Sequence record: PX393110.1
Length of the DNA stretch: 64,000 bases
DNA from: a phage
Direction: 5' to 3' (one strand)
The position numbers and the translations under genes are program-made. The notes beneath the pieces are model-generated. The model was given only the letters and a program-made list of their open reading frames with translations. It was not told where the DNA came from and ran no database searches. Shown piece after piece: positions 4,521 to 30,434 of the stretch (position 1 is its first letter; each line of letters starts with the position of its first letter).

Positions 4521-4525
4521 TTTTA

Positions 4526-6898: not shown

Positions 6899-6913
6899 TT
6901 TAATTTCTCCTAA

Positions 6914-8768: not shown

Positions 8769-8776
8769 CTCCCAAG

Positions 8777-10291: not shown

Positions 10292-10310
10292 TACTTAATT
10301 CTCCAAATTA

Positions 10311-11420: not shown

Positions 11421-11465
11421 GACTTTCTCCAGTCTTTCAAGGTCGCAGGCAACGCGACGGATCAT

Positions 11466-11523
11466 TCGGCGGGGAACGCCCCGCGCCCAAGTTAACGGGC
11501 TGCAGAGCGCTCCAGACTTCGTT
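11466..11523 (-). promoter_or_regulatory. class-2 cassette c (degenerate)
   Basis: Core 11477..11508 AGCCCGTTAACTTGGGCGCGGGGCG, then hairpin GCGGGG-CGTT-CCCCGC. AAAAATAAAACGA upstream. Confidence 0.4.
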
Positions 11524-11817
11524 TTATTTTTGGTTTTGAGCTTGCTGGAACATCTTGGTGATTTCCAGCATCAGGTCACGGTAGTCAGAAGTCTGAACTC
11601 CTTCCAAACCGTAGTCGGCAATGATTGACTTGAAGTAGTTCATACCGTCCTGGAGGTTATTGAACTCCAGAGGATCTTCAGCCATCGCCAGGTAGACTTC
11701 GGACATAACCACTGGACGGCCATCTTTCTCATCAACGAAAGCAACCAGAACAGCCAGCTCATCTTTGTCAGCAACTGTAGGATTGGAAGAGAAACCGAAG
11801 TTTTTAGCAGTAAACAT
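11524..11817 (-). CDS. small acidic hypothetical protein (class-2 cassette gene)
   Basis: ATG at 11817 (MFTAKNFG...), behind the leader TAATTTGGAGCTAATT. Confidence 0.55.
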   Translation of the reverse strand: MFTAKNFGFSSNPTVADKDELAVLVAFVDEKDGRPVVMSEVYLAMAEDPLEFNNLQDGMNYFKSIIADYGLEGVQTSDYRDLMLEITKMFQQAQNQK

Positions 11818-14296: not shown

Positions 14297-14566
14297 TTAT
14301 CGAATTAGCCCATACTTCCATGCCATTACATGCGCAGGTTCGTTATGAGCGAAGAATGCGGTACCCTTCTTGGTAGTAAGCACCAAACACGGCTTATTTC
14401 CCATCATATCAGCCATGCTAGCTACCACAGTCTTCTCAGACCCAGGCTTAGCCGGATCAATGCCCATAGCTATTTTATGAGCAGTTGTCTTACCAGGACG
14501 TCTCGGATTAGATACCAAGACTTTAGGGGAGGTCTTTCGGCCACCCTTACGCTGCTTTCTCGCCAT
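14297..14566 (-). CDS. small basic hypothetical protein
   Basis: ORF track. Lys/Arg-rich N-terminus. Overlaps the polymerase stop by 20 nt. Confidence 0.45.
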   Translation of the reverse strand: MARKQRKGGRKTSPKVLVSNPRRPGKTTAHKIAMGIDPAKPGSEKTVVASMADMMGNKPCLVLTTKKGTAFFAHNEPAHVMAWKYGLIR

Positions 14567-17500: not shown

Positions 17501-17834
17501 CCAGAGTCTTCTTATGCGTATAGCCTGGGGATATAGTCGCAGCTAATTGGCGACCCAAAGTCATTACATGCTTAACGCCATGCTTTTCACACAGCTCGTA
17601 AAAGTTGAGACCATCCTTATCACGGATTTCGTCTATGTTAGACAGCTCTTCGAAAGTACCATCTCTGTTGATCTCTATCAGACCAACTTTGTTATGTACC
17701 CCAGCTGTAATTAGCGCTACATCAAGAGTTTGGCCAGCATTCGATGCAGCAAACGGAGGAGCATCATTATTCTCGCGCTCGTCCCCGATAATGACATAGT
17801 CTACTTCGCCAACTAAATTGTGATTCAGAAACAT
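14547..17834 (-). CDS. family-A DNA polymerase with N-terminal UDG-like domain
   Basis: Pol motif A DFSQAELVMVS, motif B RKGGKAINFALVYQSS, motif C MVHDSLD. Exo-like GLDYES. The N-terminal IIGDERENNDAPPFAASNAGQTLDVAL resembles family-4 UDG (GEGPG..G.PFVG.AGQLL). ATG at 17834. Confidence 0.85.
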   Translation of the reverse strand: MFLNHNLVGEVDYVIIGDERENNDAPPFAASNAGQTLDVALITAGVHNKVGLIEINRDGTFEELSNIDEIRDKDGLNFYELCEKHGVKHVMTLGRQLAATISPGYTHKKTLDKLLKFPLGNIPEYNFKLAVVMHHAQVERNLDSDPGILDSWIDRFKFLVFGQKESEYNVEWEFVDWNGLQEFLNDIMWSGYKGYLGLDYESNAADLFSVDFRITGFSIAKKIGDKDAKSVWYNVTGKETPEQLGFLRDFLVKFQEQIVAFNCPYEIKTTWHWLDVFCKFIDAIVTLTMHGERSSLKDAARRYLHADFWEGSVHEWKDRWAAIFKDMKKRCTPEQIAEIQSGEFNIEHHLALKAEYEKLVEAAPTKAAKNRIPVNFNQFMLDKIAELSEELEESEIIYLASFYPYEWGAIPREILGEYCCYDSAYGVFIHEMFYDKYKDGYNVYMLHPYLASIFEANGIRWDDEEATKEYDYCMSKMSEHLVSLIPNLKLPPDQMLTARDFIYRELPYENVWYTPGGQERRKMVTTLAGKIADLSGFFNPNSNDKANKEKFWKAYLTDEVEMCTMLWSVMDQLKVHDYWDKTLLAISKGFVPKDSEKLEREFFREFPVDEILTRIIQFGDTAESKHVRELIAMCVQDGLEAYEERFTNKFKADVLDAQLAIHQLMLGVNPDDESTWNTSFRMMVDLKMYKRHYKQIATYIDGKVGRQTVWAAKLRDGLPPLRVRKYDWDNPKLQDGEDCYIMTPDFNSLAAITSRWQAGIHNVPGDSTLRNIWVSKPEGGLWYHQDFSQAELVMVSVFADDSDMKNVFLSGGDMHRFVSSIAYQKSEPEVTDVERKGGKAINFALVYQSSLESVAMVATGGDMERAQNLMDTVFGKFTGLKAWIDATKKNGFETGYAYGYFGNRINLEGTNVNSTSVNYPIQNTSSMVAGAGMYFLDEDFKQSNMEAETHIMVHDSLDTTSGINEMFKVFQKTRENMEGAIRELWDMPMRTDIEFGARGGSLMGLDDYGVNEDGSGWLIVEGRESALEKLLEALDQYSQWTPYVEILKEKEKLNSIANSFNSKSGIRSDGTGWGCKYIELKAKITLEPKHGEKAA

Positions 17835-17844
17835 GTTTAACTCC

Positions 17845-17898
17845 AAAAATAAACCTCCGCCAATTTAACAGCCTTTTAGGCCGCTAAAAAGGCGGAGG
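17845..17898 (-). terminator. hairpin enclosing class-1 copy 2, followed by U-run
   Basis: CCTCCGCC...GGCGGAGG followed by TTTATTTTT, just before the polymerase RBS. Confidence 0.35.
17865..17895 (-). promoter_or_regulatory. class-1 motif copy 2
   Basis: CCGCCTTTTTAGCGGCCTAAAAGGCTGTTAA, 30 nt before the polymerase ATG 17834. Flanked by the 8-bp inverted repeat CCTCCGCC/GGCGGAGG. Confidence 0.6.
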
Positions 17899-17903
17899 TA
17901 TCT

Positions 17904-19541
17904 TTAGATGAGGGTCTGTAGGAACCACTCGGGCACTTGTCCCTTAAGGTTATCCAGCAGTCTCTGGAAGGATGGGTCCATCATGTAGGTTACTGCGAAA
18001 TCGTCATGGCTACGTACAGCACGACCACTACCCTGGATGATGGCTATCATAGGCTGGATATTATACCACTCCGGATCACGCACTTTCTTGCGCTCTACCC
18101 AGAGATCACCCAGGTTAGGATAGGAGATCTTGAAGAATACCTGGAATCTGGCAAGATCGCCATGTAAGTCCACGCCCTCCAGAATAGACGGAGACACGAT
18201 AATGCGACCAGGAGTCATCAGCTTAGTGATGTCTCGCACTTCCCTAGAGGTGGGAATGTACATACGGTCGGCATACTTACTTAACTTCTTGATCTCCTCA
18301 GCATTAGCATACGATGCAGAGTGAACCAGTCCGCAAGCAGTGTCATCTCCCAGTCCCTCCAGGAAGTTATCCAGAGCTTCTACATATTCCGGGAACACAT
18401 CCGCCTTAGTCTTGAAGTTCATGCTAGGAAGAGAACGTTCCACAATAAACGGACGATTCTCCAGAGGCCATGCATAATCAGTAGTGATTACTTCCGTATC
18501 ATCCATGCTCAGTTTCAGATCATAGATAAGATTAAACGGAGTAGCAGTCATCAGCAGACGATACTCTGGATGCATAATCAAGCTAGCTGAAGAGTCCAGT
18601 ACTTCCAGTGGCTTGAACTTAAACATCAGATCTCGCTCACCAGTATCTTCGTACAGTACCCACTGATCTGGATCCGTAGCGATGATTGTATTAATCCCGG
18701 ACACGGTCTCTGAAGCCAGGCTAGCTCGAGATTCCAGAGGTCCCAGTTTACTCGCGATCAGCGACTCTACCTGAGCCTTGTTACCGATAGCATCGAACTT
18801 CTCGATAGCCTTCTCCAGATCACGAATCTGAGCGTATAGAACAGATTTAGCCTGGGTAAGATATGGTAGCAGGTCGAAGATGTAGTTGATCTTGAAGTGC
18901 TTAGTCCTCTGAATCTCAGCAACCGGAATGTAATCCCCCATGTCGAATTCTGGAGTTAGGTCCATAAGACGACTGATGTTGATAGTAACTTCGGAGCGAT
19001 CAATAAGAGATCCTGGCAGAGTATGGGCTTCGTCCGCCACCAGCAGTCCTTCTGCAGTGTACTTACCATCCGCAGTAAAGAAGAATGCATAGTTAAGGTT
19101 CTTAAGTGGTGAATCTTTCCACGCATTACGAGCTGCCGCATACTCACAGCACCCGTCCGTCTTACGATAGCGACAGGTAGGGTGATGTTTCTTCTTCGGA
19201 GGAATGGGCAGAGTCAGGTCTGTGTGGCAGCTATAGTTCGTAGCACCCATCAACTGCTTCATATCCTTAAAGTCGCGAAGATACTGCTGCTGGAGAGCAA
19301 TCGTCTTGGTAATGAATAGAGAATCGGTCTCGAACAGCTGATTAATTACTTCGGCTACGATTCGAGAGATCCACGATTTACCAGCACCGGTAGGAGCATT
19401 CAGCAGCACCGTCTTCTTATTCTTATTAATGAACGCATCCAGAATCTTGATGATAGTTTCGCGCTGATTAGCTCGATAGCTAAAGTCCGGGAACGTCTCC
19501 TCCACTACGCTATCGAGGATTCCTTCGACATCATATTGCAT
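17904..19541 (-). CDS. SF2 helicase, DinG/XPD(Rad3)-like
   Basis: Walker A NAPTGAGKS and DEAH box LVADEAHTL. An intervening Cys cluster (YSCH...PTCRYRKTDGCCEY) is typical of Fe-S helicases. Confidence 0.7.
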   Translation of the reverse strand: MQYDVEGILDSVVEETFPDFSYRANQRETIIKILDAFINKNKKTVLLNAPTGAGKSWISRIVAEVINQLFETDSLFITKTIALQQQYLRDFKDMKQLMGATNYSCHTDLTLPIPPKKKHHPTCRYRKTDGCCEYAAARNAWKDSPLKNLNYAFFFTADGKYTAEGLLVADEAHTLPGSLIDRSEVTINISRLMDLTPEFDMGDYIPVAEIQRTKHFKINYIFDLLPYLTQAKSVLYAQIRDLEKAIEKFDAIGNKAQVESLIASKLGPLESRASLASETVSGINTIIATDPDQWVLYEDTGERDLMFKFKPLEVLDSSASLIMHPEYRLLMTATPFNLIYDLKLSMDDTEVITTDYAWPLENRPFIVERSLPSMNFKTKADVFPEYVEALDNFLEGLGDDTACGLVHSASYANAEEIKKLSKYADRMYIPTSREVRDITKLMTPGRIIVSPSILEGVDLHGDLARFQVFFKISYPNLGDLWVERKKVRDPEWYNIQPMIAIIQGSGRAVRSHDDFAVTYMMDPSFQRLLDNLKGQVPEWFLQTLI

Positions 19542-20497
19542 ATTAAGTTCTCTCTTCTGTCTAATACGGACTGGATGAACTCATCAGTACCATTCTGCAG
19601 TTTCCGTATTAGTAATTCCTCAGGATCCTCACCATCGCTGTAGACTACTCGCAGTTGACGAATACTCTTCACCTTCTGTCTTACGCTATTGCGCAGTTCA
19701 AAAGATAAATCCGTACTGTCAAGAAATATCTGACCTTCTTCCGGGAAGAACTGACTCATCATCCTGGCCTGGGTATCGGTGAGGAAAGATCCCTGGACAG
19801 CTAATGGGTTATCGTAGCCTAACAGCAACATTGCGAAAGCATCAAACATACCCTCGCATAAGCTGAACTTAGTCATACCTCCGTATAGACTAGTCTTCAG
19901 AGCACGATTCGGACTATAGATATACTTATCCCCAGGAGGAATATGGTATTTCCTTTTACCTATCGGCTCGTACAGACGCATCGTATAAGATATGATCTTA
20001 CCCTTAAAATACATCGGAGCTGCCACACCTACTCCCTTAAGTTCGCGGATCTGGAAATAATCTTCCATACCCTGTAGGAGCGGGTTGCGGTTAGCCAAAT
20101 ACTCTTTACAGAAATCAGAAGGAGGATCAAACATCCTCTCATACTGAATCTCTGGCACCGAAGATAAACTCCGGACTACCTGCTTATCAGAATGAGCTAT
20201 CCACCCACGGATAGTTAGCTCTAATTCTAACTCTTCCTTACTCTTATTCGAGAAAGGTATGAACTTACAATGGCAACGATGGCATATTCCAGTCTGCTTA
20301 TTGTAGTTCCAGTAAAATGTCCACTTAGAGTTCGGTTCCCCCATAAGTTCACAGGTGGGACACAGTCGGAGCTCCTCCCCCTTATGTTCGTTAGCTATCT
20401 GGACATTACCAGGATACTTATCTGCTTCGAACATGTAAACTCTGGGAGTAACCCTAACCAAGTATTCATTTATACGAGTTAGAGACTCAATTTCCAT
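19505..20497 (-). CDS. DNA primase (Zn ribbon + TOPRIM)
   Basis: CPTCELMG...CHRCHCKF zinc ribbon. TOPRIM-like SLCEGMFDAF and FLDSTD. Confidence 0.65.
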   Translation of the reverse strand: MEIESLTRINEYLVRVTPRVYMFEADKYPGNVQIANEHKGEELRLCPTCELMGEPNSKWTFYWNYNKQTGICHRCHCKFIPFSNKSKEELELELTIRGWIAHSDKQVVRSLSSVPEIQYERMFDPPSDFCKEYLANRNPLLQGMEDYFQIRELKGVGVAAPMYFKGKIISYTMRLYEPIGKRKYHIPPGDKYIYSPNRALKTSLYGGMTKFSLCEGMFDAFAMLLLGYDNPLAVQGSFLTDTQARMMSQFFPEEGQIFLDSTDLSFELRNSVRQKVKSIRQLRVVYSDGEDPEELLIRKLQNGTDEFIQSVLDRRENLICNMMSKESSIA

Positions 20498-20807
20498 AGA
20501 CTAAACTCTGACCCGCATGGATGCGTACTGCATGGTTCTTGTTAGAGTTAGTCAGACGAATCCACTTACCTTCGTCTGTAGAGAATACCTGAGCAGTTAA
20601 GCCCAGGTAAGATACAGAAAGATTAGAGATAGAGTCGACAGTTACCGTACTATCTACCGGAAACTCTACCGATGAGCCAGCTCCAACAATGTAGCCACTC
20701 TTACGCAGCTTCATTGGAGCAATACGACTACTGTGCTGATCGTCAGCACCAATTGTCCGAGCGAACGAGCTCTCAACGTAAACAGTTTCAGGAATATTAA
20801 TCTGCAT
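20487..20807 (-). CDS. small beta-barrel protein, possibly dUTPase-fold
   Basis: ATG at 20807. FSTDEGKWIRLTNSNKNHAVRIHAGQSLV loosely parallels dUTPase motifs 3-4 (GVIDSDYRGE..l.N.....i..GdRIAQL). Weak call. Confidence 0.3.
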   Translation of the reverse strand: MQINIPETVYVESSFARTIGADDQHSSRIAPMKLRKSGYIVGAGSSVEFPVDSTVTVDSISNLSVSYLGLTAQVFSTDEGKWIRLTNSNKNHAVRIHAGQSLVYGN

Positions 20808-21396
20808 TGCCAATAGTCTCTTTAACCAGGTGCTCTATTGAACTACCATGTGCCATATGGAGAAGAGACTGGAGAGTACCCATCCATACATCATCACTCA
20901 CTTCGTCTTTGTACTTATTGAAGCAGGTACTGAAGATGTTGCGGCAGTTCTCCAGCTCGCTTTCGCCAAAGAAGATGTTACCCATGCTGAACTCAGTCAT
21001 GATCTCACGAGATACCGCAATAGCATCTGCAACTTTACAGATGAACTTAGCTTCGGCAGATGCAGGAGTGCGGAAAGTAGGAAGTACCTCTTCCCAGATT
21101 TCCTGCTCAACTTTATTCAGAGTCTCTTTTAACTCTGGGAAGCGAGCCTTAGCAGTGTAGGGGACATCACCTGTAAAGATCTCTGGAATGTCGTGAACCA
21201 ACGAGTACTGATTTACTTCCAGACCCTGCTCAGCAGTTAAAAATCCATCCATCACCAGTTTCTGAACAATCAGAGTAGAGTAGTAAGTAACTTCGAAGCT
21301 ATGCTCCGAGATAGTAGAGCGATGAGACAGTACTTGCTTACCTGCGAAACGATTCACGTTATTGGTACACACTGGTACCTTAAAAAGATCTTTCAT
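20797..21396 (-). CDS. HD-domain 5'-deoxynucleotidase (YfbR-like)
   Basis: TISEHSFEV ... LVHDIPEIFTGDVP match YfbR (ENVSEHSLQV ... LYHDASEVLTGDLP). Confidence 0.7.
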   Translation of the reverse strand: MKDLFKVPVCTNNVNRFAGKQVLSHRSTISEHSFEVTYYSTLIVQKLVMDGFLTAEQGLEVNQYSLVHDIPEIFTGDVPYTAKARFPELKETLNKVEQEIWEEVLPTFRTPASAEAKFICKVADAIAVSREIMTEFSMGNIFFGESELENCRNIFSTCFNKYKDEVSDDVWMGTLQSLLHMAHGSSIEHLVKETIGNAD

Positions 21397-21415: not shown

Positions 21416-21448
21416 AAAAATAAAGGTATGGAAGTTGCCTCCCACACC
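21416..21448 (-). terminator. promoter-proximal hairpin + U-run
   Basis: GGTGTGG...CCATACC followed by TTTATTTTT. The stem is 7 bp with one G-U pair that is valid only in minus-strand RNA. Confidence 0.4.
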
Positions 21449-21479
21449 TTAACAGCCTTTCGAGCCCTAAAAAGAGCGG
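21449..21479 (-). promoter_or_regulatory. class-1 motif copy 3
   Basis: CCGCTCTTTTTAGGGCTCGAAAGGCTGTTAA. It abuts the upstream stop (21480) and lies 52 nt before ATG 21396. Confidence 0.6.
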
Positions 21480-22553
21480 TTATTCCAGAATAAACGGAGA
21501 CTTATCCCCGAGGCGGTTCGCGACCCATTTCACGAATGGTGAATTAACCAGATGCTCGCACTGGATAGACATGTGAGCTCCAGTAGTCTTACATAGATAA
21601 TGAGCGCCTGCTAACCACATCATCACATCCAGAGTTGATCCTGGTTGGAACTCTCGACCAACATCTTCCATTACGTATTCTAGAATACTGTGATCGCTAT
21701 TATAACGAGAAGCAGCATCTTCAAGAGTAGCGATGTAATGCTGGAAGTAGGTACGGATCTTATACCAGGAATTAAGTGATCCGAGATCAATCGTAGTTAC
21801 CGGAGCTTCATTAATGTCGTCAACATAAGCTCGGATATTACTTACCTGCTTCTTGATGTTCGACACTTCCGGATACCAGTGGAGATCATCCGTCATCACC
21901 ACATAGTTGCCCATATCTACTTTGAGCATAGTTGCGATGATTTCCTGGATGATCGTGAACTCCACCAGATTAACGTTAGTCAATCCCCAGATTAGATCAT
22001 TACTACGGTTGAATACCGTGCAGTCCAGACCACCATTACGGTACTTAAACGATAGAGCAATGTTGCAGATCATATCTGCGGTATTGATGCTGCCAATGCT
22101 GTTTACCAGACCTACATCAGAATCACGGCTGGGATCGTGAATAGTAGCCACGCACTTACGGTTACCCAGGTCAGAACGGAGGCGGTCTGTTACAGTCTGG
22201 AGTTGATCGTAGTTATACAGACGCTCACCGTAAGCACCACGCCAGGTAACCATATCATCGCTAAACATCTTAGCGCGAGGAACCATAATCGACATCCAGT
22301 TATCGATTGCATAGCCACCAGACAGTACCCACAATACTTCCCCCATAATTCCGAGGATATTGTCTTTACGTTCTGGATGAGCCATCCAACGATTAATCGG
22401 ATTACTTAACTCAACTACAGCATGACCGATGGATACTACCGCCGAAGAGTTAACAGAAGTTCTGGACTTCTGCAACTCACCAGCCTTATCCATAGTATTG
22501 ATGCTGTTAACCAGGATTTCAGTATTACTGTTACCGCGAATTACCGAGATCAT
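21480..22553 (-). CDS. thymidylate-synthase-family pyrimidine dNMP hydroxymethylase/methylase homologue
   Basis: GEVLWVLSGG (ELLWFLQGD), YGERL, DQLQTVTDRLRSD..NRK (DQI..V...L..DP.SRR), catalytic-Cys segment DMICNIALSF, and NRSNDLIWGL (ThyA QRSCDVFLGL; T4 gp42 MRSNDVVFGF), DDLHWY. Extra C-terminal extension of about 100 aa. Confidence 0.7.
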   Translation of the reverse strand: MISVIRGNSNTEILVNSINTMDKAGELQKSRTSVNSSAVVSIGHAVVELSNPINRWMAHPERKDNILGIMGEVLWVLSGGYAIDNWMSIMVPRAKMFSDDMVTWRGAYGERLYNYDQLQTVTDRLRSDLGNRKCVATIHDPSRDSDVGLVNSIGSINTADMICNIALSFKYRNGGLDCTVFNRSNDLIWGLTNVNLVEFTIIQEIIATMLKVDMGNYVVMTDDLHWYPEVSNIKKQVSNIRAYVDDINEAPVTTIDLGSLNSWYKIRTYFQHYIATLEDAASRYNSDHSILEYVMEDVGREFQPGSTLDVMMWLAGAHYLCKTTGAHMSIQCEHLVNSPFVKWVANRLGDKSPFILE

Positions 22554-23272
22554 TTAGAGTCCTTACGCACTGAATCAATAGACTTAACTGCAGAGGACAG
22601 TAACTCCAGACGGGCCTCCTGAGGGATCATACCAGATGGCTCGTTCAGGATCATAATACCTTTACCAGTATTAGTAAAACGAGCTGTGATTGATCCAGGA
22701 TACACCGGATGATTCAGAGTTACAGAATTACACAACGCAGCACCGAATCGCTCCTCGTAGGCACGCATAGTTACCTTAAGGAGAGTAGAACTGACTGCTA
22801 CAGAGTATTCAGGATCAACAACACGGAAGTTATTGTCCTCAATACTCTTATCCTTCGTATTGAAGAACAGAGTCATGTTATAATAATCAATAGACTCGTT
22901 ACTGAGACGTAATGCCTCATCACGAGCTTCCTGGCTGGCAAACATACTGTTATGCAGCAGGAAGTAAACGTACGAATCGAATACCGCACGATCACTGACG
23001 ATCAACTCGCCACGATTGTAGGCATCCTTGAACATCTGAGTTCGCTGACGAATAAGACGCAGCTGGAACTCTACCGCTTCCATAGGATCTTCTACAGCTA
23101 AGCGCAGAATATCCATATGGGATGTTACTCCCAGAGGAAGATGGTCACGAGTCTGTACTGCACGGAAGGTACATTCGGTTGATTCTTCCCAACCTTTAGC
23201 CAGGGTAGATTTACCGGTACCCTGCGCACCAGACATAATTACACTGTAGCCTGGGATACTATAGTCTCTCAT
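22550..23272 (-). CDS. P-loop nucleotide (dNMP/deoxynucleoside-type) kinase
   Basis: P-loop SGAQGTGKST and DRAVFDSYVY (dNK/TMPK-like). ATG at 23272 with GGAGAG RBS. ATGA overlap with the next gene. Confidence 0.6.
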   Translation of the reverse strand: MRDYSIPGYSVIMSGAQGTGKSTLAKGWEESTECTFRAVQTRDHLPLGVTSHMDILRLAVEDPMEAVEFQLRLIRQRTQMFKDAYNRGELIVSDRAVFDSYVYFLLHNSMFASQEARDEALRLSNESIDYYNMTLFFNTKDKSIEDNNFRVVDPEYSVAVSSTLLKVTMRAYEERFGAALCNSVTLNHPVYPGSITARFTNTGKGIMILNEPSGMIPQEARLELLSSAVKSIDSVRKDSK

Positions 23273-23304
23273 TATTCTCTCCAATTAAGAATCTTTCCCA
23301 CATT

Positions 23305-23361: not shown

Positions 23362-24333
23362 CTAGCTAAACTTATACCAGCGAGGTCTCATACGGATCTC
23401 GTGATTCAGTTTATGTAGTTTCGAGAATTCGCAGAATGAGTTGGTGAACATCTGGCGAGTATAGAATCGCTCATCCTCTGGCATGAAGTGGAACCATTTC
23501 TCCGGTTCCCATGAATACCCGAAATGTGCACATATCTCTTTGATGTTCTGATACCACCATTCCACGAATACCTGATAACCACAGGGAGGATTCTGGTCAT
23601 TAATCATGTACCATACCCCATCCTGAGTCCCAGGTCCACATACGATAGCGTCATTATCTGTATACGCAGTCTCTTTAGAGTAGGACATAGTTGCCCAGCA
23701 TTGATATGCCATGAACGGACCTAATCCAGATACCTGTAACAGATGCTCGATAGCCTCGGTAGCGAACGGAGACTTCCATGCCCATAAGATAGGATCACTG
23801 TAGGTCTTCACCAGATAGGCTCTGGCAGCTACACTGTACTTAATATCCTCTGGACATACTTCATTAGCCATCTTAACTGCTGTGCTAAGGAAGTAGGCAT
23901 TTGATTGCTGTGGAGCGGTGAACGGAGGACCATCCTCATAACGACGTAGCTCTTCGCGACCCATGTTATGTATGTCGTCATAGCTCATCTCATAAAGAGG
24001 AAGGACTCTGCGGAAGCGATCCATATATGAATCACCACGGTTTATCATCTGGAAGAGTACTACATTAAGTGCTTTACTCTCCCAGCTTAAAGAATCGTTC
24101 TCCAGAATGTTCTTAATAGCCCACACTGTTTCACGATCGTGCTTACGGAACACGTTAGTGAATTTGAACTTACTAATCCACTTATGTTCCGTCCACGGAG
24201 GAGGCAGCTTAAGCACCTCCTTCTTATAATAAACCTCTGTACGTTCACGGTTATACTCCACATACTCCCGTAACTCCTCAGGATTTATCATCCCAAGGAG
24301 TCCTTCGTAATGCAGACCTAACGGTGTTGACAT
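23362..24333 (-). CDS. hypothetical protein inside the modification island
   Basis: ORF track. TAATG coupling to the upstream glycosyltransferase. Trp/Tyr-rich. A DNA base-modification enzyme (for example pyrophosphorylase-type) is suspected from context only. Confidence 0.35.
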   Translation of the reverse strand: MSTPLGLHYEGLLGMINPEELREYVEYNRERTEVYYKKEVLKLPPPWTEHKWISKFKFTNVFRKHDRETVWAIKNILENDSLSWESKALNVVLFQMINRGDSYMDRFRRVLPLYEMSYDDIHNMGREELRRYEDGPPFTAPQQSNAYFLSTAVKMANEVCPEDIKYSVAARAYLVKTYSDPILWAWKSPFATEAIEHLLQVSGLGPFMAYQCWATMSYSKETAYTDNDAIVCGPGTQDGVWYMINDQNPPCGYQVFVEWWYQNIKEICAHFGYSWEPEKWFHFMPEDERFYTRQMFTNSFCEFSKLHKLNHEIRMRPRWYKFS

Positions 24334-25412
24334 TAAAGAATACCTTCTTTGGTAAAGTAGTCGATTACTTCATCCTGAAGTTCTTGTGCGTAATCCTTGC
24401 GCAGATACAGATTCTCATACTGATGTTTCAGCAGAGCATCACGATCTTTCAGTTTCTCTGCAATCTCCGCATTACTGGAGACGATCAGAGGAGCCAGCAG
24501 CTCTTCGGGGACGCCGCTCCGGATTATTGTTCCGGCAGCATCTTTATCCACCAACATCAGAGTACCAGAGCTCAGGTATTCATAATAACGGTTAGGTGGG
24601 CTGGTATAGAACGAGTTACTAGAGTTCCAGTCTTCAATAAGCAGTACCGCTGCGTATTTAGCCACTTCATCCAGCATCTCTGACAGCTTAAACTTAGGCA
24701 GCCAGTTAATAGGAGCAGCAGGCCCCAGCCACTTACGTTCTTTAGGATCCAGCTCTTCCCAGTTTTCCTGCTCGTAGCCGTCAAATCCAGCAAGACCACC
24801 AGTATGTTTAGCGATAGACATCTGAGCTTTGTAGCTAGGCACCGACATAAACAGTTCCAGACCATCCTGCTGGGAGAAGTACTGAGTGAACTTATGGAAG
24901 CGACCTTCACGAGCAGCACCGTAATACAGCAGGCTATTGTCTGGTTTATCAGATGAGCCGTAGCGAGGCTTACGACCAGGAACGTAGGTAAGACGGTTCC
25001 AGTTAATGTGGTGATAGTTCTCTTCGCTAGGGGAGTACTGATTACCCCAGGAAGTACGCTCGAATGCTGCTACTACTTTAAATGTCGTAGCTGCTGTGAT
25101 GTGTCGCCACTGCGGACCCTGGATACGCATACGTGATGAATAATCTTGACCAATCCAGTAAAACTTAGCTCCGAGGTCCGCCTGGTCTACCCAGAATTTA
25201 TACATCTCATCGCGGAACTTACAGAAGGTAGGAACACCATTGACGGCGATGATCACGTCATATTTGGTGCCATCTTCCATAGCCTTAACAAACTTAGGAG
25301 TATCATCCAGCAAGTCCGCCTGAAGTCCGTAGGCTAACCAGGATGCCAGAGTGTTACTGGCGATGATGGATTTATCGCTGCATGGCGAAAAGTTAGTTAC
25401 TGCAATTTTCAT
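24333..25412 (-). CDS. GT-B glycosyltransferase resembling T4 DNA beta-glucosyltransferase
   Basis: From memory of T4 BGT: MKIAVTNF (MKIAIINM), YDVIIAVN (YDRLIVVN), LLYYGAAREGRF (VIYGGSFRSGQR), AAVLLIEDWNSSNSFYTSPPNRYYEYLSSGTLMLVDKD (AALIIGDKNYNDNFITLRVWETMASDAVMLIDEE). Same length class (359 vs about 351 aa). Confidence 0.6.
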   Translation of the reverse strand: MKIAVTNFSPCSDKSIIASNTLASWLAYGLQADLLDDTPKFVKAMEDGTKYDVIIAVNGVPTFCKFRDEMYKFWVDQADLGAKFYWIGQDYSSRMRIQGPQWRHITAATTFKVVAAFERTSWGNQYSPSEENYHHINWNRLTYVPGRKPRYGSSDKPDNSLLYYGAAREGRFHKFTQYFSQQDGLELFMSVPSYKAQMSIAKHTGGLAGFDGYEQENWEELDPKERKWLGPAAPINWLPKFKLSEMLDEVAKYAAVLLIEDWNSSNSFYTSPPNRYYEYLSSGTLMLVDKDAAGTIIRSGVPEELLAPLIVSSNAEIAEKLKDRDALLKHQYENLYLRKDYAQELQDEVIDYFTKEGIL

Positions 25413-25440: not shown

Positions 25441-25470
25441 GTAACAGCCTTTTAGCTCATCAAAGAAGCG
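25441..25470 (-). promoter_or_regulatory. class-1 motif copy 5 (variant)
   Basis: CGCTTCTTTGATGAGCTAAAAGGCTGTTAC, 28 nt before ATG 25412. The upstream stop lies inside the motif. Its 3' block forms the hairpin AGGCTGT/ACAGCCT. Confidence 0.5.
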
Positions 25471-26494
25471 AATTAGCTGATGCCCAACTCAGCCACTTAT
25501 CATTGAGATCAGTTAAGTAGGAATAGTCTTTGTTTAATCCGAATACCGTACGGTTAGTTCCATCGAACTTCATTACCCCAGCACCAGGAGCTCGGATAAT
25601 TGCATCTTCGGTAGCCGTACAATACTCTTTCAAGTATTCCTGGATGTTGGGACGAATACGACGGAACGAGCTATCTGCAGAGTCATAGTGGAACATATCT
25701 GCACAATGCCACTGTACGTAGGACTTATCTGGACGGCTAAGCAGCTCATTACGAGTTACCATATCTTTCGGAGAGTAGCCTAGCTTAGCTACGGTGACTT
25801 CGTGAATACCACCGCCATTAGAAGAGGTGTCCATTAACCAGTTCTCATCCCAGTAGAACGAGCTACCAGTACCGGTTACCTGGCCCACTTTCCATCCCAT
25901 CGCCATACCTTTAAACAACAGGTAGCAATCCTCACCTACAGTGAGTTGCTGGAAGGTCTTATCGAACAGCCAGAACATCTTCTCGCTAGTCTTGACCATA
26001 ATACCCAGGTCAGTAGCCGGAGCAGTGTTATTATGGGACTGACGATCGCAGAGTTCAACAATCTTGTAGTTACGGTTCTTGAAGCTACGGACGAACGCCA
26101 TCTCAAACTCAGATCCCTCGAAGTCGATAATGGACCGATCCAGATGGAAGATATCGTCGGCGAACCAGACATCATCATCCACGAAGTAGCAGATGTCTGG
26201 GCACCAGTCCTGCTTCTCCATTACAATCCATGCTTTATCCAGAGCATGGGCACGGATTTCTCCGATTACCGGATTTTCGTACTTAGGGCTATGACAGAAA
26301 TTAAATTGCTCATCCCCACCAAACTGCTCTTCCAGAATTGCCTTATCTTCTTCGGAGGCATCCTGAATAAAGTAGAAGAAGCGATACTCAATAGAGTCGT
26401 CAGTCTTTTTAGCATCTTTGAACGACTGAATCTGACGGAGTACCGACTTCAGACGATGATAGGTTGGGATGATAAAAGCTACTTTGGTGGTCAT
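25460..26494 (-). CDS. GT-A (GT2-like) glycosyltransferase
   Basis: N-terminal VAFIIPTYHRLKSV and the DXD-type motif FVDDDVWF. Confidence 0.65.
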   Translation of the reverse strand: MTTKVAFIIPTYHRLKSVLRQIQSFKDAKKTDDSIEYRFFYFIQDASEEDKAILEEQFGGDEQFNFCHSPKYENPVIGEIRAHALDKAWIVMEKQDWCPDICYFVDDDVWFADDIFHLDRSIIDFEGSEFEMAFVRSFKNRNYKIVELCDRQSHNNTAPATDLGIMVKTSEKMFWLFDKTFQQLTVGEDCYLLFKGMAMGWKVGQVTGTGSSFYWDENWLMDTSSNGGGIHEVTVAKLGYSPKDMVTRNELLSRPDKSYVQWHCADMFHYDSADSSFRRIRPNIQEYLKEYCTATEDAIIRAPGAGVMKFDGTNRTVFGLNKDYSYLTDLNDKWLSWASANSLL

Positions 26495-26500: not shown

Positions 26501-27112
26501 TTATCCAATTTGACGAACTAAGCGAAACCCTTCGGCGTACGGCCACTGGGCGGAATATCCACGTAAGGTGGCTAGGGCTAAGATACTCTGGGTATCTCGG
26601 TCTGACTTAATCTGGGAGTCGAATCGTCCCATAGCCTGGCACTTACACTCAATATCGTCCTTATTCAGACGCTCGAAGTAATTAGGTTCCATCTGACCGA
26701 ACTGGGTCAGGGACTCGGCATACTCATATTCCAGGATAAGCCAGTTATACGCTCGGAGAGCTACACGAGCAGCATGATTAACTAGTTGATGGTCCTGGTG
26801 TAGGCTACTGAACGGAATATAGACTACATCCGGCCTGATTTTAGCAACATAGTCCGCAATATCCTTAGCCAATTGCGGAATATCCTTCTGAGTCATACCA
26901 TCGCCTGTGGAGGCATCGTTACGCTCCAGGCAATGTACTTCTTTGATATTCGGATAGACACCGAATGCTGCTTCGGCTTCGCCACGACGGGTCTCGTCCG
27001 GAGCAGTTACTTCGAGGATGAAGAATTGGTCATCGCGGAATTTGCTCATAATACCTCCGCAACCCAGAATCTCATCATCGTGATGTGGGCTGATAATCAG
27101 TCGTGACTTCAT
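26501..27112 (-). CDS. PIG-L/LmbE-family N-acetyl-sugar deacetylase
   Basis: IISPHHDDEILGCGG (family motif PHPDDE..G.GG) and the downstream SLHQDHQ metal-binding motif. Confidence 0.75.
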   Translation of the reverse strand: MKSRLIISPHHDDEILGCGGIMSKFRDDQFFILEVTAPDETRRGEAEAAFGVYPNIKEVHCLERNDASTGDGMTQKDIPQLAKDIADYVAKIRPDVVYIPFSSLHQDHQLVNHAARVALRAYNWLILEYEYAESLTQFGQMEPNYFERLNKDDIECKCQAMGRFDSQIKSDRDTQSILALATLRGYSAQWPYAEGFRLVRQIG

Positions 27113-27129
27113 TATTAATCCTCGCTACA

Positions 27130-27163
27130 CAAAAATGGGGTTAGGCCGTAGAGACCTAACCCC
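27130..27163 (-). terminator. promoter-proximal hairpin + U-run
   Basis: GGGGTTAGG-N9-CCTAACCCC followed by ATTTTTG. It lies between class-1 copy 6 and ATG 27112. Confidence 0.45.
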
Positions 27164-27179
27164 GTACGCCTCTGACACC

Positions 27180-27210
27180 TTAACAGCCTTTTAGGTCATC
27201 AAACAGGCGG
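27180..27210 (-). promoter_or_regulatory. class-1 motif copy 6
   Basis: CCGCCTGTTTGATGACCTAAAAGGCTGTTAA, 67 nt before ATG 27112. The BCCT stop lies inside the motif. Confidence 0.55.
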
Positions 27211-28581
27211 AGTTTCCTTAGCCAAGAATACTTTAGGTACAAAGATCTTGAGGAACCCGAATAGAATACACAATACCCCAATCAGTACCGGAACAGCCGA
27301 TACAGCTACCAGAGTCTTCGTTACAGTTACTACGTCGCCACCTGCCCAGTTAAGTGCAGCAGCAACTACACCCATGCTTACAATCCAGAATACACGAGTT
27401 CTAGGAGCGGTCATGGACTCTACCGTAATACCTGCTGAGTCATGACCTGTAATAAAGAACAGGATCACAGACACGAGGGTAATTACCGAGAATATCCATC
27501 CGCCTGGGAAATTAGCCAGAAGCTGGAAGATATCCTGAGCACCATGTTGTAGACCAGCTACACCGAATACGGTAAACCAGACGTTACTGATGATGGTAGG
27601 GAACAGTACACATCCGAGGATCAGTTCGCGAATAGTACGGCCGTAAGAGATACGTGCCACAAACGCTCCGACGAATAATGCCCAACCTACCCAGGCTGCA
27701 TAGTAAGCATAAGGCCAGCTAGCCAGCCATTGCTTCTCTTCAGCAGTACTGCCGATGTTTACTGACATAGGAATAATCTGGAGCAGATAGCTACCAGAAT
27801 AGGTGATGGTCTTCCAGAGGTATTCGAAGAATGTACCACTTACAGCAACGAATGCCATAATAGATAGAGCTACGATTACATTATATCTGGATAACCACTT
27901 AACCCCACGATCGACACCAGTTACGGCACTAAGTACAGTACCCAGAGTCAGGAGCGCGATAATGGTGTAAGGACCAACATCCACTCCCAGGAACTCTTTA
28001 AATCCGGAACTGATCGGGCCTACTGCGTAGACGAACGACAGGGTTAAGCCTATGATGGTAGAGAAGAGTAAGCTTATCGTATTAAGGTTATTCAGAGCTC
28101 GGGACTTGAATAACTGATTAAGCGGACGGTCTTCACCACGTACATGCAGTAAGTACCCGAATGCCACCCCTACGACTGCATAAACTGCCCATGCGTTAAG
28201 TCCCCAGTCAAAGAAGGTAGTTACCATATTCTGACGTTCGGACATACCCTCCTGCTGATGGTACATAGGTTCGAGTACACCATAATAAATCATGGATACA
28301 CCCATACCGGTACTAAACATCATGGAGTAATAGGTAAAGCGATTATATTTCGGAGCACCTTTACCCAGCTTAATGTTACCATGCTTGCTGAATACAAAGA
28401 ATGCCAGGAACGCTAGGAAGATCAGCGAAGACCAGGTAAATATGAATCCATACTGAGATATGAATACAGACTTACTCCAGTCCATTACAGCACCAAACTG
28501 GGTGGGAGCTAACATAATGGCGAGTATGATACCCACCGTTACTAGCACCGTCCCCCAGGTAACTACCTTTGAATCTGACAT
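27199..28581 (-). CDS. BCCT-family (betaine/carnitine/choline-type) transporter
   Basis: Polytopic membrane protein. SWPYAYYAAWVGWALFVGAFVARISYGRTIRELILGCVLFP aligns with the BCCT signature region (BetP [41 protein letters not shown]). Confidence 0.8.
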   Translation of the reverse strand: MSDSKVVTWGTVLVTVGIILAIMLAPTQFGAVMDWSKSVFISQYGFIFTWSSLIFLAFLAFFVFSKHGNIKLGKGAPKYNRFTYYSMMFSTGMGVSMIYYGVLEPMYHQQEGMSERQNMVTTFFDWGLNAWAVYAVVGVAFGYLLHVRGEDRPLNQLFKSRALNNLNTISLLFSTIIGLTLSFVYAVGPISSGFKEFLGVDVGPYTIIALLTLGTVLSAVTGVDRGVKWLSRYNVIVALSIMAFVAVSGTFFEYLWKTITYSGSYLLQIIPMSVNIGSTAEEKQWLASWPYAYYAAWVGWALFVGAFVARISYGRTIRELILGCVLFPTIISNVWFTVFGVAGLQHGAQDIFQLLANFPGGWIFSVITLVSVILFFITGHDSAGITVESMTAPRTRVFWIVSMGVVAAALNWAGGDVVTVTKTLVAVSAVPVLIGVLCILFGFLKIFVPKVFLAKETPPV

Positions 28582-28584
28582 TGA

Positions 28585-29493
28585 TTATTCCTCAATTACG
28601 CCCTTAGCGATTAACTGGCGACGGACGTATGCGTAGCCAGCAGGTGAAGTAGCGAGGACGATGTCCGCACTACGGAAGTTGGTTTCGATATAGAAGCACT
28701 CCTGAAGATCCCGCGTACAGAAGAGCTCAGTGCTCATCATACCCTCGCGTACGTTACATGCGTCTGCAACGAATTGCGCAACATCTTCGAAGTGGTCTAC
28801 CGAATGACTATAGCCGAATCCACGGGCATCAGTAGATATAACGTAGTTATGGCAGTACGGAGTGAAGTCAGTATCTTCGTAGGATTTACCCTGGATAGTG
28901 AAAATATCTGCATAATCCTTGAACCCGCTCGGGCTAACCAGAAGATCCCAGGCAACTACCATACCGTCGATAACATCTGCTTGAAGTACCAGAGAAGTAG
29001 TATATTCGTCCGGCGCCTTATCACAGACCAAAATTGGGGAGTCCCCCAGAAGGTCCGACATAGTGCCTGCACCCTTGCCCCCGTGAACACGATCACGGCG
29101 TACAAACGCCTCCTGAGGCTTCTGGTACAGTCTAAACGACGGTACAATCAGCGAATCAGGCATAGTTCCCAGATTAGCTTCGGAGCGAAGGCAGGATAAT
29201 TGGTCAGCTTTAGACCACGTACTTTCGATAGCGTGCAGATCGTTACCGATTTTGGTATAGATGTAGCTTTCCGGATTGCGGTACTTACCCTGATTCAGCT
29301 CTTCGATAACCGAGTCGAAATAAGGAAGTCGTACTGATCCCTCACGAGGAGCAGTTAACGCTACTGAACCATGCTTGGTATGATCCTGATCAACTACCAT
29401 AACCTGGTCCAGACTTACACCCATCTTAAGAATCTGGGATAGTGTAGCTGCTGTGTGGTTAGTGCAGCCAATCATCAAATCTAACTTCTTCAT
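28585..29493 (-). CDS. ATP-grasp-like ligase
   Basis: Gly-rich loop RVHGGKGAGT and the C-terminal CFYIETNFRSAD (E-x-N-x-R Mg-ATP motif of ATP-grasp enzymes). Moderate support. Confidence 0.45.
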   Translation of the reverse strand: MKKLDLMIGCTNHTAATLSQILKMGVSLDQVMVVDQDHTKHGSVALTAPREGSVRLPYFDSVIEELNQGKYRNPESYIYTKIGNDLHAIESTWSKADQLSCLRSEANLGTMPDSLIVPSFRLYQKPQEAFVRRDRVHGGKGAGTMSDLLGDSPILVCDKAPDEYTTSLVLQADVIDGMVVAWDLLVSPSGFKDYADIFTIQGKSYEDTDFTPYCHNYVISTDARGFGYSHSVDHFEDVAQFVADACNVREGMMSTELFCTRDLQECFYIETNFRSADIVLATSPAGYAYVRRQLIAKGVIEE

Positions 29494-29520
29494 TTTAATT
29501 CCTCAGTTAACTTGTACAAC

Positions 29521-29550
29521 CTAACAGCCTTTCGAACCCTAAAAAGAGCG
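29521..29550 (-). promoter_or_regulatory. class-1 motif copy 7 (variant)
   Basis: CGCTCTTTTTAGGGTTCGAAAGGCTGTTAG, 27 nt before ATG 29493. Confidence 0.5.
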
Positions 29551-29564
29551 AAATAATAGATATC

Positions 29565-29586
29565 TAGCCACCTCGTAAGATGGCTA
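29565..29586 (-). terminator. hairpin after methyltransferase gene
   Basis: TAGCCA-N10-TGGCTA followed by an AU-rich tract, upstream of class-1 copy 7. Confidence 0.3.
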
Positions 29587-29594
29587 TGTATATA

Positions 29595-30335
29595 TTACTT
29601 TAATTCGGAGAGATCTGCTATCTTCACCTTAGCTGTTACATCCCAGATTCCTTCACCAAATCCGGTATCTTCCAGCAGCTTAGGCACTTCACGTTTCTGT
29701 ACCTTAGACTGCTCGTACTTAAGCAGAGGAATATTACCGGTCTTATCCGATTGATCCCACAGATAAGTAGCAGCACCAATGTTATCGAACAGTGCGAGAT
29801 CTGGATTAAACTGGGTAAGGAGTCGGCAGTCCCAGTGAGATTTATGTTCCTCGAAAGGATTAGTCTCCGTACCACGCTGACGATACTCGTAGTTAGGAGT
29901 ACCGATCACGATTTTAGCCTTAGACTGGAATAGCTTAGACAACACCATAAGCCCATCTTCGCTATCCAGATGCTCCAACACATCTAGCCAGATAATAGTG
30001 CCGAATTTATCCAGCTCTTCAATAGGAAGATCTTTCAGCAGTTCAACGATATTGCAGATGTAGATATCGCTATATACATTTACACTGCCTTTGATGTAGT
30101 CTTCGCAGATGTCCAGACCTGTGATCTGACCTTCGAATCCTGCGTTACGGAGAGCTAGACCGATCTCTCCACGACCTAATCCCATATCCAGGATTGGCCC
30201 GGAGATAATTTCGTTACGGAGCATCCATTGGAGAAAGTGCTTCTGGACTAAGTAGGAGGTACCTCCGTTGCCCAGTGAAGCCTTCGTGACCTTAGTACCA
30301 GGAACGAAGTTACACTCGATATGTTTACCAAACAT
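29595..30335 (-). CDS. class I SAM-dependent methyltransferase
   Basis: Motif I ILDMGLGRGEIGLAL, acidic motif II GLDI, and IIWLDVLEHL. Confidence 0.7.
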   Translation of the reverse strand: MFGKHIECNFVPGTKVTKASLGNGGTSYLVQKHFLQWMLRNEIISGPILDMGLGRGEIGLALRNAGFEGQITGLDICEDYIKGSVNVYSDIYICNIVELLKDLPIEELDKFGTIIWLDVLEHLDSEDGLMVLSKLFQSKAKIVIGTPNYEYRQRGTETNPFEEHKSHWDCRLLTQFNPDLALFDNIGAATYLWDQSDKTGNIPLLKYEQSKVQKREVPKLLEDTGFGEGIWDVTAKVKIADLSELK

Positions 30336-30404: not shown

Positions 30405-30434
30405 CCAAAAATTAGGGTGACCGAAGTCACCCTA
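30405..30434 (-). terminator. intrinsic terminator (UUCG tetraloop)
   Basis: UAGGGUGAC-UUCG-GUCACCCUA followed by AUUUUUGG, 6 nt after the topoisomerase stop. Confidence 0.7.

Follow-up and report, generated by a model that had tools for sequence, protein, structure and literature searches.

The 64,000-nucleotide stretch of phage DNA analysed here (sequence record PX393110.1; hereafter the window) carries genes for a deacetylase, an ATP-grasp enzyme and a methyltransferase, which an initial annotation had grouped as a trio for amino-sugar tailoring. We tentatively read this locus as the tailoring end of a thymidine hypermodification cluster based on 5-hydroxymethyluracil (hmU) in an IME392-like coliphage, in which an N-acetylhexosamine (HexNAc) carried by hmU would be deacetylated and then acylated with an imported carboxylate. 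The window shares 94-96% nucleotide identity with the Escherichia phages vB_EcoM_IME392 and EP_H11. In their records nearly all genes of the block are labelled 'hypothetical protein', the named exceptions being a 'Bcct family transporter' or 'high-affinity choline uptake protein', thymidylate synthase and topoisomerase subunits. The block contains a thymidylate synthase (TS) homologue of the uracil type, an HD nucleotidase, a P-loop kinase, an HMUDK_hel protein, a homologue of the T4 beta-glucosyltransferase (b-gt), a GT-A-like protein, a PIG-L deacetylase, a BCCT importer, a divergent ATP-grasp enzyme and a class I methyltransferase. From about 4 kb to 50 kb of the window every gene lies on the minus strand. 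Since the surrounding genes encode a family-A DNA polymerase, helicases, topoisomerase II subunits, an SbcC-like protein and a FEN-type nuclease, the deacetylase, ATP-grasp and methyltransferase genes are located within a replication and nucleotide-metabolism block.

All three open reading frames (ORFs) of the original trio are present on the minus strand, and both motifs quoted for them were found. The 203-aa ORF (26501-27112, minus strand) carries ISPHHDDEILGCGG and matches the Pfam PIG-L family (PF02585) above threshold, with an E-value of 6.7e-14 and a score of 52.9 bits, the cut-off being 28.2. Alignment with LmbE-family deacetylases of solved structure spans the entire protein and brings the PHxDD, HxDH and C-terminal YAEGF motifs into register. 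TT1542 (E 1.9e-6) is the closest of the solved structures, followed by diacetylchitobiose deacetylase (E 1.7e-4), the nearest solved match with an assigned function, and the metal-binding and catalytic residues of both are matched by P9-H-H-D-D-E14 and H105-Q-D-H108 of the phage protein. We identify this ORF as a predicted metal-dependent N-deacetylase of the PIG-L/LmbE family with intact catalytic motifs and predicted activity on an N-acetylglucosamine (GlcNAc) glycoside. The best NCBIfam scores, 25 bits for BshB1 (equivalog cut-off 182) and 22 bits for BshB2 (195), are far below the cut-offs and show that the protein is not a bacillithiol enzyme. Characterised PIG-L enzymes deacetylate GlcNAc glycosides after the sugar has been attached; to our knowledge, UDP-GlcNAc is not among their substrates.

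PIG-L genes were also found in 32 other phage records, and at least two of them lie in sugar-tailoring neighbourhoods together with a glycosyltransferase and a ParB-like gene. Stenotrophomonas phage Summit (L027, 6001-11606) encodes, in this order, a deacetylase, a dehydratase, an aminotransferase, a methyltransferase and a glycosyltransferase beside a ParB-like nuclease gene. In Vibrio phage V-YDF132 (L026, 6001-11996) a deacetylase, a glycosyltransferase and a 'nucleoid occlusion' (ParB-like) protein are encoded amid replication genes. Both neighbourhoods may represent further DNA-glycan systems, and glycan tailoring via deacetylases is probably a wider phage theme.

The initial annotation had assigned the 302-aa ORF (28585-29493, minus strand) to the ATP-grasp enzymes from a motif alone, and structure prediction bears this out. 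The AlphaFold model built from a nine-sequence alignment, assembled after an exhaustive HMMER search, shows a confident three-domain ATP-grasp fold; a five-sequence alignment gave a pLDDT of only 38.9 and that model was discarded. From predicted structure and motifs, the protein is a highly divergent ATP-grasp enzyme and a predicted carboxylate-amine ligase. Invariant in the nine-member family are R132, G138 and K140 (within R-x-D-R-x-H-G-G-K), E256, E270 and R274, and N272 is present in eight of the nine. As expected of an ATP-grasp enzyme, E256 lies on the model strand 248-259 and E270 and N272 on the next strand, 266-272 (positions in the model). This arrangement suggests that the invariant residues occupy the places of the phosphate-binding loop and the Mg ligands. 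The nearest structural neighbours of the model are Ddl, VanA, L-amino-acid ligases, BacD, PylC and DcsG, that is, small-molecule carboxylate-amine or carboxylate-hydroxyl ligases to judge from the predicted fold, and both fold searches placed ligases ahead of kinases. In ATP-grasp ligases of the type of Ddl, L-amino-acid ligases and PylC, a carboxylate is activated as an acyl-phosphate and then coupled to an amine.

At the sequence level the family is new, comprising seven clusters without a profile match. Searches of Pfam, NCBIfam, PHROG and PDB sequences with phmmer and hmmsearch, using single sequences as well as five- and nine-sequence profiles, returned no match, and hhalign against E. 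coli DdlB gave a probability of 0.2 and no link. A search of 5.8 billion clusters gave four relatives, and one of 1.84 billion representatives gave seven clusters at 50% identity; a scan of IMG/VR found none. Beyond the IME392 group, both the family and its pairing with an importer occur only in a few metagenomic contigs. Two large proteins, P0010 (915 aa) and P0011 (827 aa), each gave five matches to positions ~101-154 of the family profile (E ~1e-4 to 1e-3), which are probably repeats resembling the Gly-rich loop region. In the contig L004, an ORF at 99-581 that overlaps the start of the ATP-grasp homologue P0004 carries 'DADTLVL', a DxD-like motif of the GT-A type, and has no Pfam match; this contig is cut at its 5' end.

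The gene between those for the deacetylase and the ATP-grasp enzyme encodes a BCCT-family secondary transporter (27199-28581, minus strand), which means that the three genes of the trio are not contiguous. The start of the transporter gene lies 3 nt from the ATP-grasp stop codon. Its 460-aa product, a minimal core without long regulatory tails, matches Pfam BCCT (PF02028) with an E-value of 4.3e-92 and 309.5 bits over residues 7-446 and profile positions 1-481 of 485, i.e., the core of 12 transmembrane helices (TM). Compared with the related contig L002, the transporter is the best-conserved protein of the cluster (89% identity, dN 0.073). The TM4 residues W131 and Y134 are invariant, while in TM8, where BetT and CaiT have 'WW', the window has 'AW' and the more distant contig L007 has 'NW'. 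The phage BCCT transporters form a subgroup of their own in which one of the two adjacent TM8 tryptophans is replaced. Scores against the NCBIfam equivalog and subfamily models were all below cut-off (e.g., 242.7 against 650). Most known BCCT substrates bear a carboxylate, namely glycine betaine, proline betaine, carnitine, gamma-butyrobetaine, ectoine and dimethylsulfoniopropionate, and we know of none of these that E. coli synthesises de novo.

Comparison of lineages shows that the transporter gene directly follows the ATP-grasp gene in five independent lineages, where it encodes a BCCT protein in four (L002, L003, L004 and L007) and a transporter of the MFS family in the fifth (L005). The PIG-L gene comes after the transporter gene in every lineage with a long enough contig (L002, L003 and L007). 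In L002 and L003 (~70% identity), the order is ATP-grasp, BCCT, PIG-L, a 342-aa gene, a 359-aa gene, HMUDK_hel, P-loop kinase, TS and HD, with the L003 contig ending within the 342-aa gene. L007 (31% identity) has overlapping ATP-grasp, BCCT and PIG-L ORFs beside topoisomerase and P-loop/TS/HD genes. The conserved unit consists of the ATP-grasp and transporter genes, joined by PIG-L. The trio does not hold as a functional unit, as the methyltransferase gene is replaced in L002 and L003 and absent from L007, and it is the transporter that stays with the ATP-grasp gene. The transporter of L005, the most divergent member, is closest to aromatic-acid and sialate:H+ symporters, which import carboxylates; a ProP-like assignment was rejected because these symporter families outscore the metabolite:H+ family that contains ProP. 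The replacement of BCCT by a non-homologous transporter in this position provides good evidence for dependence of the ATP-grasp enzyme on an imported substrate. In the short contig L006, the ATP-grasp homologue P0006 is followed by a non-transporter fragment (1010-1354) with a weak PylC-like_N match (E 8e-4), which may be a second ATP-grasp ligase.

We also considered whether BCCT genes are common in phages and rejected this, since most matches in 'phage' records come from unannotated contigs, either short or very large, that seem to derive from hosts. The only exceptions were two Vibrio phages with a distant, truncated homologue in a choline/LicD context. In one of these, Vibrio phage 1.031.O (L009, MG592415), three consecutive and partly overlapping genes at 5824-8822 resemble a complete choline-decoration route. 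They encode a fusion of a cytidylyltransferase with a choline/thiamine-kinase-like domain, a BCCT-like membrane protein that is truncated, and a phosphocholine transferase of the LicD family, and are labelled only 'coil containing', 'TMhelix containing' and 'LicD family'. The predicted functions make this a second, unrelated phage pairing of a BCCT-type importer with a transferase.

A candidate for the enzyme that would attach the sugar is encoded two genes downstream of PIG-L. The 359-aa ORF (24333-25412, minus strand) has no match in Pfam and only two relatives in a large protein database. BLASTP against T4 b-gt, with a query sequence 100% identical to the annotated gene, gave an E-value of 0.008 at ~21-25% identity. 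Alignment by hhalign of a profile from the window and L002 sequences with one built from seven b-gt homologues, which span T4 to a Lactobacillus phage, gave a probability of 93% and an E-value of 3.5e-7 over 309 columns (1-351 against 1-349). The catalytic Asp100 and the UDP-binding Arg191, Arg269 and Glu272, all invariant in the b-gt alignment, correspond to D90, R168, R275 and E278 of the 359-aa protein; the Glu22 column is not conserved in this comparison. The BLASTP and hhalign results identify the ORF as a predicted full-length T4 b-gt homologue of the GT-B fold, a proposed hmU-DNA glycosyltransferase with predicted sugar transfer to a hydroxymethyl base. T4 b-gt uses UDP-glucose as donor, and enzymes of this type glycosylate the hydroxymethyl base in duplex DNA.

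PIG-L is separated from the b-gt-like gene by a 344-aa ORF (25460-26494, minus strand) whose GT-A-like motifs IPTYHR, DDD and VGEDCY point to a possible second glycosyltransferase. These motifs are invariant in four family members, including a paralogue in the cassette of L002 and L003 described below. No match to the 344-aa protein was found in Pfam or, with phmmer and hmmsearch, in the PDB. By hhalign, its motifs are colinear with those of the T-even beta-glucosyl-HMC-alpha-glucosyltransferase family (E 0.0017, with 0.27 for the reversed control) at a probability of only 15%.

The genes that follow on the minus strand point to hmU as the modified base. HMUDK_hel (PF18723; 23362-24333, minus strand; Pfam E 4.8e-35) is a marker of thymidine-hypermodification clusters. 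We found homologues in 375 phage records, including ViI-like and PaMx11-like phages, and ZC01 gp13 and Maynard_81 of known thymidine-hypermodifying lineages belong to the same family. In ZC01, gp13 stands between a P-loop kinase and a TS homologue. The P-loop kinase of the window (22550-23284, minus strand; Pfam AAA_28, E 2e-9; PHROG 'thymidylate kinase', E 1e-11) is a candidate kinase for 5-hydroxymethyl-dUMP (hmdUMP) or a kinase partner of HMUDK_hel, and has phage homologues beyond IME392 and EP_H11 only in Ab1-TPeters ('thymidylate kinase') and RP13. It does not match the 5-hmdU DNA kinase model PF18748, and no match to the amino-acid:DNA transferase PF18724 was found among the window ORFs scanned. 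The TS homologue (21480-22553, minus strand; Pfam Thymidylat_synt, E 4.7e-12; PHROG 3676, E 7e-71) is a candidate dUMP hydroxymethylase making hmdUMP. It retains the catalytic Cys and has Asn in the column of E. coli ThyA N177, like the ZC01 homologue and unlike T4 dCMP hydroxymethylase. This residue favours dUMP as substrate, and hmU over 5-hydroxymethylcytosine (hmC), with hydroxymethylase rather than methylase activity being predicted. The last gene of this nucleotide-pool unit encodes an HD-domain, YfbR-like 5'-deoxynucleotidase (20797-21396, minus strand; Pfam YfbR-like, E 1.7e-14), and in L002 and L007, too, a homologue of it comes after the TS-like gene.

Previous work has grouped the IME392 polymerase with the SP-15, YerA41 and Carin-5 clade, whose thymidine is hypermodified with oligosaccharides (PMC12686479; bioRxiv 10.1101/2025.03.26.645540). 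IME392 and EP_H11 were predicted in the same studies, as a prediction only, to contain modified thymidine on the basis of an 'aGPT-Pplase1' gene, and no 5-hmdU DNA kinase was detected in either phage. The absence of a PF18748 match in the window agrees with the latter finding (bioRxiv 10.1101/2025.03.26.645540). An hmC pathway, with the b-gt homologue acting on hmC, was judged unlikely given the Asn at the N177 column, the HMUDK_hel gene and the polymerase clade.

Whereas the protein families and their arrangement were computed, the chemistry of the pathway is inferred throughout, from the known habits of b-gt, PIG-L, ATP-grasp and BCCT proteins. In the route that we propose, 5-hydroxymethyl-dUTP would replace dTTP and be incorporated into the phage DNA. 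The b-gt homologue would flip out hmU and place a sugar on the 5-hydroxymethyl group, most likely an N-acetylhexosamine drawn from the abundant UDP-GlcNAc pool, and the 344-aa protein may attach a further sugar. PIG-L would then strip the N-acetyl group from the sugar and leave a free amine, which the ATP-grasp enzyme would amidate with a carboxylate that it activates as an acyl-phosphate. The co-transcribed importer would supply this carboxylate, which would be a zwitterion of the betaine, carnitine or ectoine kind, not synthesised de novo by E. coli. In IME392 and EP_H11 the methyltransferase would add another decoration, possibly an O-methyl group on the sugar, and in L002 and L003 an alternative cassette would decorate instead. 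The predicted product is a bulky, probably cationic adduct at thymidine positions that would block restriction enzymes and other DNA-targeting defences. The narrower proposal that a quaternary-ammonium-type carboxylate, i.e., glycine betaine, carnitine or a relative, is imported and amide-linked to the deacetylated amino sugar on hmU in phage DNA is one that we regard as doubtful. The b-gt homologue and the hmU-pathway genes lend more weight to the earlier idea that amino sugars are tailored on glycosylated DNA; its chemical part stays at the level of prediction.

Several observations weigh against the proposed route. The call of the ATP-grasp enzyme comes from a predicted structure and motifs, and no sequence profile ties the 302-aa ORF to any ATP-grasp family. 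The substrate of the importer is not readable from its sequence, as one TM8 Trp is replaced and no NCBIfam equivalog threshold is reached. If the 359-aa protein used UDP-glucose as donor, as T4 b-gt does, PIG-L would be deprived of its substrate. The roles of HMUDK_hel and of the P-loop kinase are not explained by direct glycosylation, and the adduct may instead be phosphate-linked as in SP-15, YerA41 and Carin-5. In other phages, PIG-L genes lie in sugar-tailoring modules of undefined target. Finally, L007 has ATP-grasp, BCCT and PIG-L genes and, in its available 14.7 kb, no homologue of the b-gt-like or the 344-aa protein.

The same L007 arrangement, with no glycosyltransferase gene adjacent, bears on the order of the steps. 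With the same enzymes and the same end point, the sugar could be deacetylated, acylated and methylated as a soluble precursor before the glycosyltransferases move the completed unit onto hmU. Such a course would fit YerA41 and Carin-5, which carry nucleotide-sugar-modifying genes (epimerase, oxidoreductases, cytidylyl- and thymidylyltransferases; PMC7354516, PMC12686479), and phage Summit, which couples PIG-L with dehydratase, aminotransferase and methyltransferase genes typical of nucleoside-diphosphate-sugar pathways. However, no nucleotidyltransferase, dehydratase or epimerase was found in the scanned parts of the window, and the characterised PIG-L enzymes act on GlcNAc glycosides after transfer and not on UDP-GlcNAc. 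Moreover, the UDP-glucose pocket of T4 b-gt is snug, and a bulky acylated sugar would require a remodelled donor site. We consider tailoring before transfer unlikely.

It appears distinctly improbable that the imported compound is the nucleophile, e.g., choline or another alcohol or amine that is esterified or amidated onto a carboxylate of the DNA adduct in a VanA-like reaction, or that the ATP-grasp enzyme is a kinase feeding a phospho-transfer. VanA is among the structural neighbours of the model, but either course leaves PIG-L without an obvious role, and the ranking of ligases over kinases in both fold searches, the carboxylate symporters as nearest relatives of the L005 replacement transporter, and the absence of LicD- or LicC-like genes among the window ORFs scanned all argue otherwise. 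The least probable possibility is a target other than DNA, namely glycans of virion proteins or of the host envelope, or a soluble glycoconjugate such as a thiol or an osmolyte, with the transporter acting as an auxiliary metabolic gene for osmoprotection. Host BCCT transporters are indeed classical osmoprotectant importers, PIG-L homologues of actinobacteriophages are labelled 'glucosaminyl deacetylase' outside any known DNA-modification context, and the tie between the present genes and DNA is a predicted one. Nevertheless, the adjacent glycosyltransferase is homologous to T4 b-gt, whose family is known only from glycosylation of hydroxymethyl bases in DNA, and three divergent lineages embed the module amid topoisomerase, polymerase, TS, kinase and nucleotidase genes rather than structural genes. 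The tight coupling of the transporter to the ATP-grasp gene and its exchange for a non-homologous one likewise argue for substrate supply over general osmoprotection.

Comparison with known systems places the cluster, as predicted from its T-even-like glycosyltransferase and its TS homologue and HMUDK_hel similar to those of Lee et al., among the phage hydroxymethyl-pyrimidine hypermodification systems. Like T-even phages, the window has a b-gt homologue, a second transferase-like gene directly upstream and a TS-family hydroxymethylase candidate nearby; in many phages the second T-even transferase gene adjoins b-gt. In contrast to T-even phages, the predicted base is hmU instead of hmC, the b-gt homologue goes undetected by Pfam, and the link between the second transferase and the 344-aa protein is not significant. 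With ViI, M6, PaMx11, SP10 and PhiW-14 the window shares the TS-family hydroxymethylase, HMUDK_hel beside a P-loop kinase and a variable, combinatorial tailoring set (PMC8989533). Unlike in the pathways of Lee et al., no PF18724, pyridoxal-phosphate, radical-SAM or FAD enzyme was found among the window ORFs scanned, and a tailoring set of glycosyltransferase, deacetylase, ATP-grasp enzyme, importer and methyltransferase goes unmentioned there (PMC8989533).

The initial annotation held that this chemistry is not that of known phage DNA modification, which is too strong in view of the deacetylase genes of YerA41 and Carin-5, the HexNAc of Carin-5 and the GlcNAc-transferring enzymes acting on hmC DNA (PMC7354516, PMC12686479, PMC8256090). 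SP-15, YerA41 and Carin-5, of the polymerase clade common to IME392, have glycosylated thymidine and sugar-tailoring blocks that include a deacetylase (PMC12686479, PMC7354516); in Carin-5 the thymidine adduct includes HexNAc and the gene block a deacetylase (PMC12686479). However, their deacetylase bears the label of a polysaccharide deacetylase rather than of PIG-L, and neither an importer nor a homologue of the window ATP-grasp enzyme has been reported there. Their adducts have a longer linker and a phosphate, whereas that of the IME392 group is predicted from its genes. Glycosyltransferases associated with TET enzymes in phages put GlcNAc on hmC in DNA (Burke et al., PMC8256090), but the base, the origin of the hydroxymethyl group and the glycosyltransferase families differ, and neither deacetylation nor acylation follows.

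The likeness to mycothiol and bacillithiol synthesis put forward initially proved apt for the order of steps. In both pathways (MshA/MshB/MshC and BshA/BshB/BshC), a GT-B enzyme adds GlcNAc, a PIG-L/LmbE enzyme frees the amine and an ATP-dependent ligase acylates it, and the phage set mirrors this logic. The likeness does not extend to family membership beyond PIG-L in the broad sense: the phage aglycone would be hmU in DNA instead of inositol or malate, the glycosyltransferase belongs to the T4 b-gt family and not to GT4, the ligase is of the ATP-grasp rather than the MshC/BshC type, and the acyl donor is apparently imported and not cysteine.

If the proposed route holds, deacetylation by a PIG-L enzyme, acylation by an ATP-grasp enzyme and a phage-encoded importer reserved for a building block would all be novel; we found nothing in the literature linking BCCT, ATP-grasp or PIG-L proteins to phage DNA hypermodification. 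Known phage hypermodifications draw on metabolites of the host pool such as UDP-glucose, amino acids and polyamines. On the narrower, doubtful proposal of a quaternary-ammonium-type carboxylate, the present one would be the first DNA modification built from an imported exogenous metabolite, and would yield a permanently cationic, glycan-borne base adduct that depends on environmental supply. Modification, and with it resistance to restriction and DNA-targeting defences, could hinge on the chemistry of the medium, which would matter for phage therapy and for phage-host ecology in gut and sewage. An hmU-DNA glycosyltransferase, a DNA-glycan deacetylase and a DNA-glycan ligase would also be new enzymes for site-specific chemo-enzymatic labelling of DNA. 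The hypothesis is open to direct test, since both IME392 and EP_H11 are E. coli phages in culture.

The third gene of the original trio encodes a 246-aa class I S-adenosylmethionine-dependent methyltransferase (29595-30335, minus strand), an assignment that stands, as do those of the PIG-L and ATP-grasp enzymes. Pfam Methyltransf_25, _23, _31 and _11 all match the same region with E-values of 4e-5 to 1e-3, just below their cut-offs, so that no profile is matched above threshold (Methyltransf_25, 24.6 against 27; Methyltransf_11, 20.0 against 21.2). The closest methyltransferase in the PDB is 3dli (E 8.9e-5), followed by the domain of Hen1, a ribose 2'-O-methyltransferase (E 0.003), with motifs aligned; the ORF contains motif I, ILDMGLGRGE, and ITGLDI. 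Among phages we detected this methyltransferase only in IME392 and EP_H11, together with three weak partial matches. Given its replacement in L002 and L003 and its absence from L007, it is a lineage-specific accessory gene.

In L002 (3674-7578) and L003 (1808-5712) the methyltransferase slot is occupied by a cassette of five or six genes. Its products include a DxD-type transferase-like protein (weak Gly_transf_sug match), the paralogue of the 344-aa protein, a Cys-rich protein of the CxxCxxCC-like type, a phosphatidylserine-decarboxylase-like protein (31 bits, above cut-off) and a second, weak ATP-grasp_3-like protein. The phages represented by L002 and L003 probably make a different final adduct. 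A 260-aa protein in this slot of L002 was considered as a diverged methyltransferase and rejected, as BLASTP found no similarity.

The region is further structured by terminator-like hairpins, of which we counted 13 between 21000 and 31000 of the window against 5.9 +/- 2.2 in shuffled sequence, an approximately twofold excess. The strongest of them fall exactly in the minus-strand intergenic gaps of the co-oriented block. A strong hairpin on the minus strand at 27137-27163, in the gap between the BCCT and PIG-L genes, has an 11-bp stem with seven GC pairs followed by ATTTTTGTGT. Three others, likewise on the minus strand, lie between the TS-like and HD genes (21423-21450, 12-bp stem followed by a T-run), between the methyltransferase and ATP-grasp genes (29565-29586, 9-bp stem) and between a topoisomerase subunit gene and the methyltransferase gene (30413-30434, 9-bp stem followed by ATTTTTGGAT). 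Together, they bracket the methyltransferase gene as a stand-alone cassette and the ATP-grasp and BCCT genes as a two-gene unit. Instead of being full terminators, such hairpins may serve in attenuation or in RNA processing or stability. The ORFs of the cluster are under purifying selection in comparison with the 70%-identical L002, with dN/dS values of 0.05-0.12 where computable and synonymous sites saturated.

Other genes of the window and its relatives gave additional observations. In the 1099-aa family-A DNA polymerase (14547-17846, minus strand), the Pfam polymerase domain does not start before about residue 766. The extended N-terminal part is compatible with the SP-15-like subfamily of polymerases fused to a uracil-DNA glycosylase (bioRxiv 10.1101/2025.03.26.645540). 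Two ORFs at 5330-6898 and 8777-10291 (both minus strand) divide RNA polymerase Rpb1/beta'-like domains between them, with domains 1-2 in one and 3-5 in the other, which indicates that the phage encodes a split multisubunit RNA polymerase comparable to those of PBS2/AR9 and jumbo-phage lineages. A 330-aa ORF downstream of the HD gene (19505-20497, minus strand) has a weak Toprim_2 match (E 0.0012) and may be primase-like; it is kept in L002 (86% identity) and L007 (30%). In L007, a topoisomerase IV/gyrase A-like subunit gene (9312-11708) is split by an intein with an HNH endonuclease domain (Pfam Intein_splicing and HNH_3). Finally, a 174-aa ORF at 4014-4538 (minus strand) matches the anti-CBASS phosphodiesterase Acb1 (Pfam PF23474) with 27.6 bits against a cut-off of 27.

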